The notes beneath the pieces were generated by a model, which did no database searches, had not been told where the DNA came from, and saw nothing but the letters and a program-made list of their open reading frames with translations. Both the position numbers and the translations under genes were made by a program. From an uncultured Phycisphaerales bacterium (GTDB taxonomy: Bacteria > Planctomycetota > Phycisphaerae > Tepidisphaerales > Tepidisphaeraceae), in the NCBI GenBank assembly GCA_963755915.1, contig CAVWLP010000003.1, positions 992,001 to 1,056,000 on the forward strand: DNA of 64,000 nt, given 5' to 3'. Position 1 is the first letter of the stretch. Every line of letters begins with the position of its first letter. Positions 48,559 to 55,951 of the stretch are shown one piece after another.

Positions 48559-48614
48559 TGATGACGCACAAGCAGTACGATAGAGGAAACCAGCGATGGA
48601 AAGACGAGGTGTAA
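48558..48614 (+). pseudogene. C-terminal remnant of a HigB-type toxin
   Basis: In-frame VMTHKQYDRGNQRWKDEV* overlapping the antitoxin start; resembles the HigB C-terminal TH.EYD...WK motif. Confidence 0.6.
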
Positions 48615-49063
48615 AAATTCCCCAGGCGATCAAAGCGCTGCCAGAGTCCTATCTCGACTTGCTGGCCGAATTTCCCCTCCGCCCAATCACGACAGGAAAG
48701 GAATACGAGCGAGCCGTTAAAATTGTTCACCGGCTCGCATTGCGCGAGGGCAAGCTTGACCGTGGCGAGGAATCATTCCTGGAAGTTCTGGAAACATTGG
48801 TCGAGCGCTACGACGAGTCGCACCATCCGATGAACACCGACGACGTTTCTCCCACCGAGGTTCTGCGGATGCGGGTGGAGCAGGCCGGGATGAGCGTGAC
48901 GGATTTGGGGAAATTGCTGGGGAGCAAGAGCGCGGCTTCGGAACTGCTGAGCGGGAAACGCAAGGAGCCGAGCAAGTCGCAAATTGCGAAGTTGTGCGCG
49001 AGGTTCAAGGTCGATGCGGGAGTATTTCTGCAAGCGGCAACGTCGCCGGCAAATGCGGCGTAG
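48596..49063 (+). CDS. HigA-like HTH antitoxin
   Basis: FPLRPI..EYERA, LETLVERYD, HTH LGSKSAASELLSGKR, LCARFKV. Confidence 0.85.
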   Translation: MERRGVKIPQAIKALPESYLDLLAEFPLRPITTGKEYERAVKIVHRLALREGKLDRGEESFLEVLETLVERYDESHHPMNTDDVSPTEVLRMRVEQAGMSVTDLGKLLGSKSAASELLSGKRKEPSKSQIAKLCARFKVDAGVFLQAATSPANAA

Positions 49064-49263: not shown

Positions 49264-51603
49264 TTAATCCATTTGGTAGCGCATTTCCACCTGAGGGCCG
49301 ACGACTCTGACGGTCATGTCGTGGGCGATGTCGGAATACATGGGATCGGCGGTGGCGCTGCCCCAGGCGAGGGCGAATTGCTCGAGCTGGGTTTCGGCGT
49401 GCATTTTTTCGCTGACGCCCAGGACTACCTCGTTGGCTTTCAGATCGCGGGCGGCGGTGGCGATGGCGAAGAGGGGGTTGTTGGTCGGTAATACGACGGG
49501 GTGAACTTCCTTGCCGACTTGCTCGGCGATGGTGACGATTTTGGTCAGCAGATCGCGGTCGCTTTCGTCGACGCTGGTTTCCTGGGGGGTTACGCCGAAG
49601 GTGCGGGCGGGGAGTACCTTGCAGGTGACGACGACGACGTCGCGCTGGGTGGTGTCGACTTCCTGGAGAATGCGCTGGAGGACGGGGAGACTGTGCGGGC
49701 CGCGGGCGGCGATGACGACGGGCTTGGGATGTTTGAGGCCGAGGGCTTCGATGGAGACGCCGTCGCGGAGCGCTCGTTGAATTGCTCGAGATGCTCGTGC
49801 TTTCCGCCGTGGCGGCGATGGGAGATTTTTTCGACGATGAGGAAGACGATGAGGAAGGCGACGGTGAACCCGACGCCCCAGATGGTGGCGGTTTTCTTGG
49901 TGAGGAGGTTGATCAGGGCGGTGCTGGCGAGGATGAGGAAGACGGCGAAGATTCCGATGGGGAGATCGAGCTCGCGTTCCTTGGTGCGTTTGTGGATGTT
50001 GAAGCGGGACGCGGTATTGGCGCGGCGAGCGGTCCTTTAAGCGGAGGAAGGCCATGGACATGGTCATGAAGACGAAGGACCAGATGACGCCGAAGGCGTA
50101 GGCTTCGCCGAGGGTGTCGACGTCGCCGGAGCTGGCGACGATGACGATCGAGCTGCATGATGGCGATGAGGTTGATGAGCCGATGGGTGGTTCCGAAGCG
50201 TTTGTGGGGATGCTGGAACCACGGGGTGAGGACGCCATCTTCGGCGAGGCGATTGAGGACGCCGTTGGAGCCGACCATGCTGGTGTTGACGGCGCCGGCG
50301 AGGATGAGGAAGCCGACGATGACGACGAAACATTCCATAATGATTTTGAGGAGGGAGGGCCCGGCGAGGTATTGGACGAGGCCGTTGATGAGGTTATCGC
50401 GATATCCGCCGTTGTCGCGCTGGACGTGGTGATCGGCGTCGAGCATGACGAGCTGGGTGGTTTTGTCGAGGTGTTCTTCGCCTTTGTTGTCGAACCAGCG
50501 ATCAAGTCGGTAGCCCCAGTCGTGGGGATGCTGGGCGTCGTGCTGGCGGAGGTAATCGACTTCGACGTAGTCTTTGCCGGCTGAACTTGGCGGGGTGATC
50601 CGTTCTGGACGACCATGGTCATGACGCGTTTGCCGTCGGGGATGATGAAGATGGCGAAGAAGCTGATGAGGCTCGTAAGGAGCATGGAGTAGAGGAAGAT
50701 GACGAATCCGGCGCGGAGGAGATTTTTGAGCTTGGGGGCTTCGATTTCGCGATTGACCTGGGCGAGGGATTCTTCACCGCTCATGGCGAGAAGCGTGTGG
50801 CCGAAGGCGATGAGAATGCCGAGGGCGCCGACGATGCGGGGGAAATCTTCGAGCCAGCCTTTGGAGGATTCGTTGCCACCGATGCCGGAATCGGTGAAGA
50901 CGGGATGGAGTGGCGGAGCGGAGCAACGGGAGATGGTGCATGAAGATGGTGAGGATGCTCCAGCCGATGATGAGGACGCCCATGACGGTGGTGAGCTGCA
51001 TGATGCGGAGGGCTTTGTCGCAGGATTCGTGGATTCCGACGATGTTGACGCGCCAGAAGTAGATGGTGATGAAGATGGCGAGGACGACCGTGCCGGCGTT
51101 GATGAGGTGCTGGGTTCGGCTCCGCTGGTCACGATGGGCGGGTGACCGATGTGGCGGAGGAAGACGTTCATCATGTCGACGAAGAGGCCGAGCATGTACT
51201 GGCCGGCGGAGACGGCGCTGATGGGGCCGGTGAGGATGTAATCGAACATGAGGGCGCTGACGGAGAGCTTGGCGAGGCCGCCGCCGATGGCGCCTTTGAC
51301 GACGCGGTAGACGCCGCCGCGGGTGAACATGGTGCAGCTTTCGACGTAGACGGCGCGGACGGCGTAGCTGAAGAGCATGACACCGAGGATGAACCAGGGG
51401 GCGGCCTTGCCGATGGCCTGCTCGGAGATCCCGCCGATGTAGTAGGCGGTGGAGGCGAGGTCGCAAAGGACGATAGCGGCGGCGCGCCAGAAGCTGATGA
51501 AGGCGAGGGCGACGCTGGAGACGACGAGGACGTTGATGGCCTTTCGCTGGCCGGTGTCGGGGAGCTGGGCGAAATCGAAATCACTGGTAGGGACTTGTGC
51601 CAT
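49264..51603 (-). CDS. APC-superfamily transporter, YdaO/KimA-like, with C-terminal USP-like domain (multiple frameshifts)
   Basis: DLASTAYY, GGVYRVVK, DYILTGPISAVSA, MSGEESLAQV, AYAFGVIWSF; cytoplasmic tail ANEVVLGVS. Confidence 0.8.
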   Translation of the reverse strand: MAQVPTSDFDFAQLPDTGQRKAINVLVVSSVALAFISFWRAAAIVLCDLASTAYYIGGISEQAIGKAAPWFILGVMLFSYAVRAVYVESCTMFTRGGVYRVVKGAIGGGLAKLSVSALMFDYILTGPISAVSAGQYMLGLFVDMMNVFLRHIGHPPIVTSGAEPSTSSTPARSSSPSSSPSTSGASTSSESTNPATKPSASCSSPPSWASSSSAGASSPSSCTISRCSAPPLHPVFTDSGIGGNESSKGWLEDFPRIVGALGILIAFGHTLLAMSGEESLAQVNREIEAPKLKNLLRAGFVIFLYSMLLTSLISFFAIFIIPDGKRVMTMVVQNGSPRQVQPAKTTSKSITSASTTPSIPTTGATDLIAGSTTKAKNTSTKPPSSSCSTPITTSSATTADIAITSSTASSNTSPGPPSSKSLWNVSSSSSASSSSPAPSTPAWSAPTASSIASPKMASSPRGSSIPTNASEPPIGSSTSSPSCSSIVIVASSGDVDTLGEAYAFGVIWSFVFMTMSMAFLRLKDRSPRQYRVPLQHPQTHQGTRARSPHRNLRRLPHPRQHRPDQPPHQENRHHLGRRVHRRLPHRLPHRRKNLPSPPRRKARASRAIQRALRDGVSIEALGLKHPKPVVIAARGPHSLPVLQRILQEVDTTQRDVVVVTCKVLPARTFGVTPQETSVDESDRDLLTKIVTIAEQVGKEVHPVVLPTNNPLFAIATAARDLKANEVVLGVSEKMHAETQLEQFALAWGSATADPMYSDIAHDMTVRVVGPQVEMRYQMD

Positions 51604-51762
51604 GGGAATTCTGCAATCCTTTGGGTCTAGGTCGGCAATGCAAAATGCAAGCCGACGGTGCGCAGGGCGGACCGCGATCGGATCAGGAGCGAGCGAGTTA
51701 GCAAAGGGGGGAACGCTTCAAGTGGGGTGGCTGATGAGGCCGTGTGAACCCAAGCGTAATTT

Positions 51763-52005
51763 CCCTTTCAGAGGCCGACGGGGTTAGCTGACGGGCTGGG
51801 CGCAGAAAGTCGCCCTCGGTATTGCCGAACCGATTCGCCCCTGCCGGGTGGGTTGGAGGCGGAAACAAGTCGCTGCGAGCACCGAACCGCTCGGGCCGCC
51901 GCTTCGTTTCCGTAAACCATCCCATCAGGCTGCACGAGGCACTCGCCCCGTGATGGGTTCCCCGCGCGATGGATTTCTCCAAAGCTTAGGCGGATTACGA
52001 AGGGG
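51763..52005 (-). ncRNA. c-di-AMP (ydaO-yuaA) riboswitch with large insertion
   Basis: Minus strand ...GCGGGGAACCCA...GGGGCGAAUC...AGGGCGAC...GCCCAGCCCGUCAGCUAACCCCGUCGGC; P1 CCCUUC/GAAAGGG; upstream of a ydaO-like gene. Confidence 0.82.
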
Positions 52006-52008
52006 GGT

Positions 52009-52035
52009 AGGATAGATTTTTGGGGGGGAAGTCAA
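52009..52035 (-). promoter_or_regulatory. Promoter for the riboswitch leader
   Basis: TTGACT-N15-TATCCT (spacer contains homopolymers) directly 5' of P1. Confidence 0.5.
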
Positions 52036-52154: not shown

Positions 52155-53768
52155 TTATGGATGTTGTTGGCTCGGTGCGGCTTTTTTGGGTGGGCAATCT
52201 CGGTGCTCGCCGAGTAGGCGGAAGGAGAGCTTTTCGACTCGGAAACAGAGGGGGTTGGCTTTTGGGGCGATGGCGTTGGCGGCGTTGGACTCGATTTCGC
52301 ATCGCATCGGCTGGCAGGATTCCAAGGGGATGTTAAGGGTGATTTCCTGACGGACGATGCAGCCGTTCCAGGGCTGTGAACTCATCGCGCGGTCCTGAGG
52401 GACGCAATATTGGAGCATTCGCTGCCAGCTTCCGAAGCAGTCTGTCCATGGGGGCGACAAGGGAGGCATGTCGGAGGGAGTGAAGCGGGCGGTGACGTCG
52501 GGGGCGGTTCCGGTGCCCGGGACGATTTGGAGGTTGATGGTTCCGTCTGGGTGGCGATCCATTTGTGCGTGTTGGGGGACGTGCATGGGGATGTTTTCGG
52601 CGAGCAATCTGGCGGCGAGGGCGTAGAGGGGGCCGGCGATTGTGATCGTCAGAAACTGGATTCCCCGTTTGCCTGAGACGGGGTCGTAGACGTGAATGCG
52701 CCAGTTGGATTGGATCGGACTTCTGAATAGTTTGCGCAGGGGGCCAAGACATCGGGGGCCGAAGTGGCCGTGGCGGAAGGTGAGAAAGGTGAAGAGGGCG
52801 TAGCGGCCCTCGGGGCCGAGGCGTTGCAATTGCAGGGGACGATCGACAAAACCTTCGACTGATTGGGCGTCGACGAGATAGTTTACGTAGATCACGTCGG
52901 TGATGTCGCTGTCCATTGGGAGAGCGGGAATGAGGCCGACGAGTGCGCGGGCGACACGGCTGTTGGCGAGAAGATTCCAGGACCAGGGGAGCAAACCGGT
53001 GGCGGGATAGCGGGCGAGGGCGTGGCGGCCGTAGGAGGTGACGGGCCGGCGGCGAAGTAAGACGATTTCAGTGATGCTGGCGAGCCAGATCATTAAAAAG
53101 ACGAATCCGATGGCGTTGCCGGCACCGACGACTGCGGTGAGCCATGGTGGGCGGGTGAATGAAGCGGGAAGGAGTGCGACGACGGTTGCGATTGCGAACA
53201 TGGGCCAGACGGAGGATGAGATCCAGGTGAGGCGGCGAGACCACATTCCGGAAGCGGCGAAGGACCAGGTCCAGCCGAGAGCGGCGAGGACGTATCCGAG
53301 GGTGGCGAGGCCGGCCATGCGATAGAAAATTCGGGATTCGAGAGCGGCGTAGCTTGTAAAGTCGAGAAGCGATATCGCGTGGCGGGCGGCGGCGGGTCCG
53401 TCATATACCCACAGGAATTGGCCGCTGAGATCGGCAGTGTTGGCGGCGGCGGTGACGATGAAGGTGAGGATGGCGGGTAGTTTGGGGATCCAAGGGGAGC
53501 AGCAGAGGGCGAGGGCCAAAATCAGATCGGAGATTGCGGTGACTTGCCAGGGAATCCATCCGAGCCGCCAGATGTAGGGGTGTTGTGCGACATAGCGTGC
53601 GCGGTCGGCGAGGTTTTGGGAGAGGCCGCCGGGCACGCCGGGGAGGAGGGGGAGCATGGCAATCATGGCGGCGCCGTGGGCGATGAGGGTGAAGAGGAGG
53701 GCCCATTCGAGGAATTGGGCGGCCATTTGTGGGGCGGGTTGTTGGGGGGTTAGAGCGGGAGAGTCCAT
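52155..53768 (-). CDS. Membrane protein fused to a DUF2071/YqjF-like domain
   Basis: ~6 TM N-terminal half; VIYVNYLVD..QSNWRIHV..GIQF C-terminal domain. Confidence 0.65.
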   Translation of the reverse strand: MDSPALTPQQPAPQMAAQFLEWALLFTLIAHGAAMIAMLPLLPGVPGGLSQNLADRARYVAQHPYIWRLGWIPWQVTAISDLILALALCCSPWIPKLPAILTFIVTAAANTADLSGQFLWVYDGPAAARHAISLLDFTSYAALESRIFYRMAGLATLGYVLAALGWTWSFAASGMWSRRLTWISSSVWPMFAIATVVALLPASFTRPPWLTAVVGAGNAIGFVFLMIWLASITEIVLLRRRPVTSYGRHALARYPATGLLPWSWNLLANSRVARALVGLIPALPMDSDITDVIYVNYLVDAQSVEGFVDRPLQLQRLGPEGRYALFTFLTFRHGHFGPRCLGPLRKLFRSPIQSNWRIHVYDPVSGKRGIQFLTITIAGPLYALAARLLAENIPMHVPQHAQMDRHPDGTINLQIVPGTGTAPDVTARFTPSDMPPLSPPWTDCFGSWQRMLQYCVPQDRAMSSQPWNGCIVRQEITLNIPLESCQPMRCEIESNAANAIAPKANPLCFRVEKLSFRLLGEHRDCPPKKAAPSQQHP

Positions 53769-53870: not shown

Positions 53871-55805
53871 TTAATGTATTTCAGGAGAATGGTGATCTGC
53901 GGTTGGGGTTTGGCGGTAGATGAGCATGTCGCCGTAGTCGAGGATTTGCGTGGTGTTTTGGGAGGGGAATTGAAGGGTGGTGTTGGTGTCGATGAGGAGG
54001 TGGAGGGTGGAGGAATTATCGATCGTACATTCGGCTTTTTTGGTGATGTAATAGACGGTGTGGGGCGGGGCGGTGGGGTCGGAGGTGATGACAACGCGGG
54101 TATCATCGACGTGCCGGTAGGACATGAAGGAGTAGTTGAGGCGGCTGTCGCGCTTAAAGAAGAGTTCCTGGGGTTTGAGGGGTTTATGGGTGACGGGGTC
54201 GAGGAACGTGGTTCGGTACCAGAGGTAGAAGAAGGTGGGCTCCTGGACGCTGGCGCTGGTGATGACGGTGTCGCCTGGGCGGAGGAGGGGCTGGAGAAAT
54301 TCGGCAGCGACGGCGGCTTCGGGGAATTGGGAATAGACCTGTGCGGGATAAGAGGCGATATAGCGGGTAGCGAGGGTCGCGGCGGCGAGGAAGAGTGAAG
54401 CGAGGAGAACGGGACGAACGGGTCGGCCGACCAGGTCGAGCAGGAGGGTGAAGCCTGCGTCGGCGAGGAGGATGAAGATGGGGACGAGGAAAATCCAGGT
54501 GCGCGGGAAGGGGATGCGGTGTTGGGCGAAGAGAATGACGGCGGAGCCGAGGAGGGTGAGGGGGAGGAGGAGAAACATGGGCCATTGGCGGCGGACGGCG
54601 GAGGCGAAGAAACCGGCGAGGAGAAAGAAGGCGAAGACGGCGAGGGTTGCCGGTGGGATGTGGTCGGTGATGGTGATGAAGGTGTCGCGCAGGTGTGAGG
54701 TGAGTTGATGCAGAAAATCGTTGAAAGGCTGGGGTTTTACGAAAGTGTTGTGGACGATGCCTTGGAATCCGTTGGAGACGATGACGACAGGGGTGTAGAA
54801 GAGAGCGGTGAAGGCGAAGGTTAGGCCGGCGAACGGGGCGGCGAAGTGGAGGAGGATGGAGCGGAGGGTCCAGGCGCGCGTCAGTAACAGAGCGGCGATC
54901 CAGGTGAAGAGGCCGGCGACCATGAAGAGCATGGAGGGCATGGTGAGGAGGCCGAGGGCGGAGGCGAGGGAGATGAGGGCGAGGAGCGGGGGTGTGGGGT
55001 TGGTGAGGTAGTGTAAGCCGAGGAGGACGAGGAGGAGGGTCAGGAGGACGACGAGGGAGTAGCCGCGTCCGTTGGCGGAATAGAGGATGAGGAAGGGCCA
55101 GATGGCGAGTGCGGCGGCGGAGAAGTAGCCGGAGGGGGCAGGTTTGAAGGCGCGGGATAGCTTGAAAATGAGGGGGGTAGAGAAGAGGCCGCAGAGGAAA
55201 GCGGGTAGGCGGGCGGCGAAGGGGGAGTCGCCGAGGATGGACATGGAGATTTTTTCGAGGAGGGTGTTGAGGACGTGATTGTTGGGGACGAAATATTCGA
55301 GGATGAACGGGAATGGGGAGAGGACCTGGAAGAAGGTTCCAGCTTCGTCGCATTTCATGGGTGCGGCGAGGTAATAGGCGCGGGCGGCGGCGCCGATGAG
55401 CAACGCGATCAAGAGGCAGAGGGTGCCGGTTTGGGGAAGTAGACCAGCGTTCAGGCGGGCGCGGAGCATTTTGACGGCGGCGCGCGGGGCGGCGAGGAGG
55501 TGGGCGGCGAGGATGGGGAGGAGCGGGGAGCCAGATCGGATGCAGAGATAGCTGATGAGGGCGAGGAGCTCGGAGGAGATTCCGTAGAAGAGGCCGAGTT
55601 GGAAGAGGCCGGGGGAGCGTTTGGACCAGAGGGGGGAGTGATGGAGGCCGTTGAGGAGGGCGAGATGAATTTTCGGGGGGGTTAGGGCGAAGAATGCGAG
55701 ACCGAGGAGGGAGAGGAGGATTGGTTCGAGGAGGAATCGGTTGCGGGGGATAGAAGCGGCGGCCTGGAGTTGGTCGGTTTGCGTCGTGAAACCTGGCGCG
55801 CCCAT
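53871..55805 (-). CDS. GT-C fold (GT39/PMT-2-like) membrane glycosyltransferase
   Basis: CDEAGT, PNNHVL, ARLPAFLCG, YSANGRGYSL; ~13 TM. Confidence 0.78.
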   Translation of the reverse strand: MGAPGFTTQTDQLQAAASIPRNRFLLEPILLSLLGLAFFALTPPKIHLALLNGLHHSPLWSKRSPGLFQLGLFYGISSELLALISYLCIRSGSPLLPILAAHLLAAPRAAVKMLRARLNAGLLPQTGTLCLLIALLIGAAARAYYLAAPMKCDEAGTFFQVLSPFPFILEYFVPNNHVLNTLLEKISMSILGDSPFAARLPAFLCGLFSTPLIFKLSRAFKPAPSGYFSAAALAIWPFLILYSANGRGYSLVVLLTLLLVLLGLHYLTNPTPPLLALISLASALGLLTMPSMLFMVAGLFTWIAALLLTRAWTLRSILLHFAAPFAGLTFAFTALFYTPVVIVSNGFQGIVHNTFVKPQPFNDFLHQLTSHLRDTFITITDHIPPATLAVFAFFLLAGFFASAVRRQWPMFLLLPLTLLGSAVILFAQHRIPFPRTWIFLVPIFILLADAGFTLLLDLVGRPVRPVLLASLFLAAATLATRYIASYPAQVYSQFPEAAVAAEFLQPLLRPGDTVITSASVQEPTFFYLWYRTTFLDPVTHKPLKPQELFFKRDSRLNYSFMSYRHVDDTRVVITSDPTAPPHTVYYITKKAECTIDNSSTLHLLIDTNTTLQFPSQNTTQILDYGDMLIYRQTPTADHHSPEIH

Positions 55806-55951
55806 GTGGGAATCCCTGAAGTGAATCACGCGGCAGCGCGTGATTGGGGGGATTATACATGGGACCGGGGGGCGGGCAATAAATTTGCGGTGAGGCATGG
55901 GAGTGCTGGGGGGGATGCTGGGGGATGGAAAATAAGTAAGATGGCTGGGAC

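Follow-up and report, generated by a model that had tools for sequence, protein, structure and literature searches.

The locus described here lies on the reverse strand of the window, by which we mean the whole 64 kb stretch of DNA that was analysed, and comprises a promoter-like element, a c-di-AMP riboswitch candidate carrying a long insert, two further leader structures and a gene for an APC-family permease. The promoter-like element consists of the hexamers TTGACT (52030–52035) and TATCCT (52009–52014) with a 15 nt spacer between them, and the predicted transcript start falls near 52002. The riboswitch match occupies the 5′ leader (51758–52002) and ends 155 nt before the permease ATG (51601–51603), which is itself preceded by the ribosome-binding site AAAGGA (51617–51622). 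With these signals the permease gene extends from 49264 to 51622, and its frame is open over 779 codons (49264–51603). Neighbouring features are an HTH_3 protein encoded on the forward strand and convergent with the permease (48596–49063), a reverse-strand frame with a sub-threshold DUF2071 match (52155–53768) and a reverse-strand PMT_2 glycosyltransferase-like frame (53871–55898), none of which displays an evident link to the riboswitch. A strict consensus scan of the leader returned no promoter, the element being missed because of its 15 nt spacer; orthologues carry the same hexamers with a 16 nt spacer. Contigs designated X1 and X5 contain one extra base at 52021, in a homopolymer run inside the promoter spacer (52015–52029), and the shorter spacer of the window is probably an indel error of the assembly.

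The permease product matched PF13520 (AA_permease_2) with 78.6 bits over residues 36–141 only, against 157.9 bits for an intact 780 aa orthologue (P0002, genome G010). For this orthologue no NCBIfam model was found and Pfam gave AA_permease_2 only. Close homologues are publicly named ‘APC family permease’ or ‘amino acid transporter’, with one name adding UspA, and the atlas neighbours of the protein were likewise APC permeases, some with a Usp domain. Its closest relatives (72–100 % identity) were mostly assigned to Tepidisphaeraceae, and some to Phycisphaerales or Planctomycetota. Searches of the PDB with the single sequence and with a 22-sequence profile identified no relative at E ≤ 0.01; at E ≤ 10 the sole sequence returned was the K+ transporter KimA (6S3K; E 0.028, 16.1 bits), a match that we treat as a hint and not as a finding. 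Three internal Ser/Thr/Pro-rich stretches of the window permease read like the wrong frame when set against the 780 aa orthologue. Comparison with X1, X5 and X14 contigs revealed single-base indels at 49764, 50003/50005, 50146/50148, 50582, 50929 and 51114, and these sites form the boundaries of the three odd stretches. Given an assembly of three contigs with 81 % completeness, the indels probably represent assembly errors rather than a broken gene.

Classification of the leader element was obtained with cmscan, which aligned 51758–52002 (reverse strand) to RF00379, the c-di-AMP riboswitch family, over model positions 1–134 with 58.7 bits (E 4.8e-11). The gathering score of this family is 38 bits, and no other Rfam family exceeded its cut-off within the window. 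The consensus nested helices were all formed in the alignment, namely an outer helix, the long-range helix GCGGGG/CCCCGU and an inner GGG/CCC helix enclosing two hairpins. From the 5′ end, the short outer-helix strand CGCC (51989–51992) precedes the first aptamer hairpin (51966–51985; GC..UGGA-GAAA-UCCA..GC), which was found by both cmscan and folding. GCGGGG and the core AACCCA follow (51954–51965; invariant in 15 of 15 orthologues), the partner CCCCGU of the former lying at 51778–51783. The core strand GGGGCGAAUC (51832–51841) is invariant but for one A. The two hairpins of the 3′ half occupy 51817–51832 and 51798–51815 (51798–51832 together). All three core strands (ACCCA, GGGGYGAAUC and CCCGUCAGCUAACC) were present, aligned at posterior probability ‘*’ and invariant in 15 orthologues, and the core strings quoted in the original prediction were likewise all located in the sequence and the alignment. 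The window copy does show some departures from the consensus: its outer helix comprises just three standard pairs and a C-C mismatch, and non-standard pairs were marked in its first hairpin.

Complementarity sufficient for a 5 bp pseudoknot was also present, between a loop CUUUC (51805–51809) and a 3′ strand GAAAG (51765–51769), and extends to 6 bp in most orthologues. The 5′ strand was assigned by analogy with the crystallized RNA as printed in PMC5393176, whilst the 3′ strand was read from the sequence and is invariant in orthologues. Both strands being invariant, covariation is absent. Over its full 245 nt the element had an unremarkable folding energy (z −1.13; 31 of 200 shuffles folded at least as well), so that support for the structure comes from the comparative data and not from thermodynamics.

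Riboswitches of the RF00379 class bind two c-di-AMP molecules, and a search of the genome identified a domain of diadenylate cyclases (PF02457) with 123 bits. Membership of RF00379 is established at the level of sequence and model, the score lying well over the cut-off across the full model as the original prediction of a c-di-AMP riboswitch had proposed; binding of c-di-AMP by this aptamer we infer. Taking the evidence together, we consider it likely that 51758–52002 is a genuine ydaO/kimA-class c-di-AMP riboswitch belonging to the 5′ leader of the APC-family permease, and that its insert is a peripheral structural elaboration.

Downstream of the aptamer, folding and covariation analysis identified a stem-loop that is a candidate switching element (51703–51768). 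It is closed by AAAGGG (51763–51768) and CCCUUU (51703–51708), encloses the helix ACGCUU/AAGCGU and a covarying tip hairpin, and was present in every orthologue. Changes on both sides were seen in two of its 14 predicted pairs; the outer helices are nearly invariant, and for this reason covariation neither supports nor refutes them. Its 5′ strand AAAGGG overlaps the pseudoknot strand GAAAG, which suggests how a switch might operate. Ligand binding would lock GAAAG into the pseudoknot with loop CUUUC, and as the pseudoknot and the AAAGGG/CCCUUU helix would be mutually exclusive, the locked strand would stop the stem-loop from closing. Permease expression would then drop with c-di-AMP, as the analogy with the rest of the class suggests, through either translation or Rho-type termination. 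A scan of the leader found no canonical intrinsic terminator. Constrained folding in which GAAAG was kept unpaired was attempted for 17 orthologous leaders, five of which had no locatable start codon or anchor motif; in the 12 that were folded, the ribosome-binding site did not respond consistently. Pairing of CCCCCCUUU as an anti-Shine–Dalgarno strand was also considered and rejected, the strand being complementary to AAAGGA in the window copy and limited to GGG/CCC pairing in most orthologues.

The original prediction had envisaged translational control through a hairpin GUCGGC...GCCGAC whose strand might alternatively pair with the 3′ end of the aptamer. This hairpin does exist just upstream of the ribosome-binding site (51631–51656) and a hairpin is kept there in orthologues, but their stems (e.g. 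GCGCGC, CGAUUUGC) are unrelated in sequence and cannot pair with their own aptamer 3′ strands. The pairing is therefore not conserved and the proposed switch was abandoned, whilst translational control in general is possible. The hairpin and its orthologues often hold a palindrome-like UUGCA-UUUU-UGCAA, which on DNA could equally be an inverted repeat bound by a protein.

A long insert occupies the place where the RF00379 consensus has a tiny hairpin. Here the cmscan alignment left 100 letters unaligned, against five in the consensus, between the core strands ending in GGGGAACCCA and beginning with GGGGCGAAUC. Delimited by the core strands AACCCA and GGGGCGAAUC, the insert measures 112 nt (51842–51953); the prediction of an insertion at this place was correct, and its extent, given there as about 105 nt at 51855–51953, had to be revised. 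The insert consists of an unpaired U, a first hairpin, the dinucleotide CA, a second hairpin and an unpaired A, and we labelled the hairpins P3a and P3b for the purposes of this report. P3a (51933–51952) has an 8 bp stem and a GAGU loop. It was present in all 24 family sequences examined, with 100 % of alignment cells paired and three of eight pairs changing on both sides. P3b (51843–51930) is an irregular, rod-like hairpin of 88 nt, supported by covariation and by its folding on its own, as P3b segments folded alone gave a single long hairpin in 15 of 15 orthologues. Its basal helix showed both-sided changes in four of five pairs.

Covariation was assessed over 21 pairs, comprising P3a, the five pairs at the base of P3b and two helices near its tip, in two alignments. 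The first contained 15 orthologous leaders, taken from the genome itself, 11 other genomes of the genus, G013, G020 and the unpublished G014; these were drawn from RF00379 loci and 13 further regions, and all precede the same permease gene. In this set 94.6 % of cells were paired, against 33–49 % when the 3′ partners were slid by one to three columns. Nine of the 21 pairs changed on both sides, and the covariation score was reached by none of 500 shuffles. The second alignment held 24 sequences without G014 and was aligned to the model and so leans towards it; it gave 94.3 % paired cells against 37–49 % for slid partners, again with both-sided changes in nine of 21 pairs (39 cells). RNAalifold applied to a plain MAFFT alignment recovered P3a and the tip of P3b, and did not recover the variable middle. 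Covariation in relatives thus bears out the proposal of a nested structured domain, and on these comparative sequence data the insert is a real, conserved domain with a defined secondary structure.

Individual helices proposed from the single sequence met with mixed outcomes. GGAAAC/GUUUCC is paired in the minimum-energy fold. The suggested CCCAUCA/UGAUGGG helix is not the one that relatives maintain, since they pair UGAUGGG with the 3′ strand of P3b and do so with compensation, for example GAUGGGG with CCUCAUC in G002 and GAUGGGA with UCUCAUC in G010. Similarly, the tip helix kept by relatives is CCGA/UCGG, in place of the suggested CGAGC/GCUCG. We infer that P3a and P3b extend outwards from the aptamer without disturbing the core that binds the ligand, as peripheral hairpins. 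They would then be structural elaborations that perhaps assist folding, and not a second sensor.

The riboswitch is widespread among relatives. Of 41 related genomes 26 had an RF00379 match, and within the family 23 of 24 genomes did. Apart from G012, which gave no match, each of the 12 other genomes of the genus has this leader ahead of the same permease (11 of 12). A model made from the insert and the core strands on either side of it matched 43 of 141 family genomes, representing 22 of 76 genera. Applied to 79 loci encoding permease relatives, it gave 28 matches, all of which carried the labels Tepidisphaeraceae, Tepidisphaerales, Phycisphaerales, Planctomycetota or Humisphaera. Amongst 20 permease loci from outside the family, RF00379 was present upstream of the gene in two, a Pirellulales and a Planctomycetia record, each with a match of 157 nt and 22–23 nt at the insert site; no such match was found in Acidobacteriota, Bdellovibrionales or the other records scanned in this set.

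Length at the insert site varied from 7 to 116 nt across the RF00379 matches of relatives, counting the 31 of 33 that were parsed correctly and leaving out one that was mis-parsed and one that was not parsed. No hairpin was present at the site in one of these 31, one hairpin in seven and two hairpins in 23, and none had more than two. P3b alone ranges from about 50 to about 90 nt within the family. Matches with 7–30 nt at the site scored 60–97 bits, these naturally short relatives standing in for a re-scoring of the sequence with its insert deleted. This length continuum indicates that the site is a tolerated point of expansion, and by sequence comparison the lineage of the window would represent its long end. 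The variability of the site within the class is suggested by our own survey together with one crystallization construct as printed. L025 (G023:C22:35578–35859), from another genus of the family, has a 282 nt RF00379 match in which an even longer element of about 125 nt fills this site and the 3′ half of the riboswitch contains another insert. In L038 (G008), about 24 nt (CAACGCCCAGCCCGUCAGCUAACU) are tandemly repeated inside the 3′ half of the aptamer, which may be an assembly artefact or a real duplication.

One portion of the insert departs from this pattern of free variation. The tip of P3b (CCGAGCGGUUCGG; 51882–51894, reverse strand) is conserved in sequence, has a covarying GCG/CGC helix on its flanks and was present in 17 of the 24 sequences from the family. 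Across these 17, the tip CCGAR-YGG-UUCGG, the flanking GCGN/NCGC helix and the internal loop are almost invariant, forming a stretch of about 25–30 nt, whilst the remainder of P3b changes freely with compensation. The flanking helix shows a G-C to U-A exchange. Sequences bearing the tip belong to genera g1, g9, g39 and g83, and in the first alignment also to g3, the latter resting on the unpublished G014. Exactly these 17 sequences also have GAGU as their P3a loop, the other seven having UUGU or CUGU. A purely passive spacer does not explain a near-invariant tip and GAGU loop across several genera. One alternative is that the insert is a functional module, in which the P3b tip, with or without the GAGU loop, docks on the leader or binds a protein or small molecule, and so tunes folding, ligand response or RNA stability in what would be a composite riboswitch.

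We nevertheless regard this reading of the insert as unlikely. The conservation of the tip against compensatory variation in the lower P3b stems and the confinement of GAGU to tip-bearing sequences both speak for it, but kin share the tip and the GAGU loop, so that their co-occurrence follows phylogeny and provides no independent evidence. Sister genera do not carry the tip, the insert has no match to an Rfam family, and no covarying complementary partner was found for either loop. The tip loop GYGGU could pair with an ACCGC of the 5′ leader, yet its change to AUGGU in G009 is uncompensated. A T-loop or kink-turn at the tip fits neither the G-C to U-A exchange, which pairs the first GCGN with NCGC, nor the letters of the internal loop, which vary and are not G-A. 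Pairing of a self-complementary GGCC or GGCGCC beside the tip with the 3′ strand of the outer helix was noted in two sub-lineages only and was judged coincidental. The narrower proposal that the P3b tip and GAGU loop are a functional add-on, maybe a protein docking site or tertiary contact, appears improbable to us. Were it true, this planctomycete clade would possess a composite c-di-AMP riboswitch, of a kind not described in the class, that takes in a further regulatory signal or folds with different kinetics.

Far less probable is that the insert provides an alternative fold, in which the true core faces competition from a pseudo-core, be it GGGGCGAG of P3a, the second copy of AACCCA or a pseudo-5′ half inside the insert, acting as a built-in anti-aptamer or second aptamer. 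This idea derives from the motif AACCCA..GGGGCGA, which the original prediction described as a duplicated core and which does occur twice in the window (0.09 matches expected; none of 100 shuffles reached two). The motif was held by 40 of 155 fetched loci but occurred twice in only two of them (L001 and L058), both of which are the window's own locus, and the second motif was absent from every orthologue. The repetition is thus real without being a duplicated core, and by sequence comparison the double motif is a peculiarity of the window's genome. The second AACCCA (51849–51854) forms part of the 3′ strand of P3b and is replaced by CAUCCCG, AACCUCA and others in orthologues. The first GGGGCGA corresponds to stem and loop of P3a and becomes GAGGCGA in four of 15 aligned sequences, with a compensating C-to-U change in the partner strand, as would be expected of a plain hairpin.

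Two further observations seemed to favour such a competing fold. A whole-genome search threaded the entire RF00379 model onto the 3′ 150 nt (51758–51907) with 45.8 bits, but this is 13 bits below the full alignment at 58.7 bits and its 5′ half has no CCCCGU partner, so we rejected it as the true fold and regard it as a by-product of the search window used for the genome. By inspection, the GCGGGG that precedes AACCCA could also pair with the P3a 3′ strand; however, the local tetraloop hairpin is far more favourable than this long-loop pairing, which was rejected as the main fold. Scanned on its own (51840–51960), the insert matched no Rfam family, the best E values being 4.8 and 5.8 (8–10 bits against cut-offs of about 53), and together with the continuum of insert lengths among relatives this result argues against the second sensor that had been suggested.

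The authenticity of the insert was supported by contigs matching the window. An X5 DNA contig spans 51479–52133 with all four of its gaps upstream of 52002 and no indel within the riboswitch, and an X1 contig covers 51681–51979 with no differences. RNA-library contigs, which are no proof of transcription, comprised one from X11 covering 51689–51982 with two substitutions and no gap, and two from X14, derived from a relative, spanning 51584–51889 and 51835–52028. P3b is single-copy in the genome, other matches in a BLAST-type search being no longer than 19 nt with E values of at least 0.5. Occurrences of the tip 13-mer in the genome numbered four, against one for a control, two of the four being a palindromic variant. 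Two features of the contigs were set aside. One X5 contig skips from 51819 to 51923 and was considered as an insert-free allele, but the skip would also remove a core strand, the intervening letters are not known, only one contig shows it and it looks like a divergent relative. The end of the X11 RNA contig at 51689 was considered as a hint of termination; an X1 DNA contig ends close by at 51681, indicating that the ends reflect a conserved island and not a transcript end. The single-base indel errors nearby and the low completeness of the three-contig assembly (81 %) notwithstanding, the idea that the insert arose through faulty assembly, or through the recent arrival of a mobile or repeat element, is largely refuted and has next to no probability, as contigs from four runs of four studies carry it indel-free and exclude misassembly, the lack of a second genomic copy of P3b excludes recent mobile insertion, and the same architecture is shared by all but one of the 12 other genomes of the genus and extends to additional genera.

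With the insert viewed as a peripheral elaboration of a c-di-AMP riboswitch, the window copy can be compared with known systems. The prototype of RF00379 is the leader of Bacillus subtilis ydaO (also known as kimA). Our sequence shares with the ydaO/yuaA leader family the core strands, the nested helices, the loop/3′-tail pseudoknot and the position ahead of a transporter gene. It differs in having no canonical intrinsic terminator and a soil planctomycete as host, and in bearing 112 nt with two hairpins at a site where the consensus has a 2 bp hairpin with about five loop positions. Tandem or composite riboswitches, for example the tandem glycine aptamers, have more than one structured domain per leader in the form of two recognizable aptamers. 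In contrast, the inner domain described here has no match to a known aptamer and is much shorter in relatives. The crystallized 108 nt ydaO aptamer (PDB 4QLM/4QLN), as printed in PMC5393176, contains the core strands GGGGGACCCA, GGGGGCGAAUC and CCCGUCAGCUAACC and the loop/3′-tail complementarity. In that printed construct ACCCA is directly followed by GGGGGCGAAUC with nothing at the site that holds 112 nt in the window copy, which indicates that an RNA of this class can bind its ligand with no residues at the site.

A paralogous c-di-AMP riboswitch in the same genome, which we label class B (L002; G000:C2:2769483–2769656, reverse strand), scored 37.2 bits, just under the cut-off, and its orthologues in the genus scored 51–55 bits. 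The frame downstream of L002 encodes 137 aa and looks damaged. Class B riboswitches have the same two-hairpin layout at the same site, with 58–73 nt in 11 copies, but their second hairpin is short and has no conserved tip, their 3′ half carries an extra hairpin, and the aptamer is followed by a compact hairpin with a U-run.

Our literature search found no description of the c-di-AMP riboswitch class in Planctomycetota or of a long-insert variant, with the reservation that figures and supplementary alignments of the primary papers may already show such inserts. These data document predicted c-di-AMP riboswitch control of an APC-family permease for Tepidisphaeraceae, and indicate that over 100 nt of conserved structure can be accommodated where the halves of the pseudo-symmetric aptamer join, a tolerance useful for annotating riboswitch ‘inserts’ and for choosing sites for aptamer engineering. 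Apart from the expansion and its tip, the riboswitch is much as its well-known class would lead one to expect. In sum, the window copy belongs to a known class of riboswitches and carries a probably peripheral expansion that is specific to its lineage and supported by covariation.
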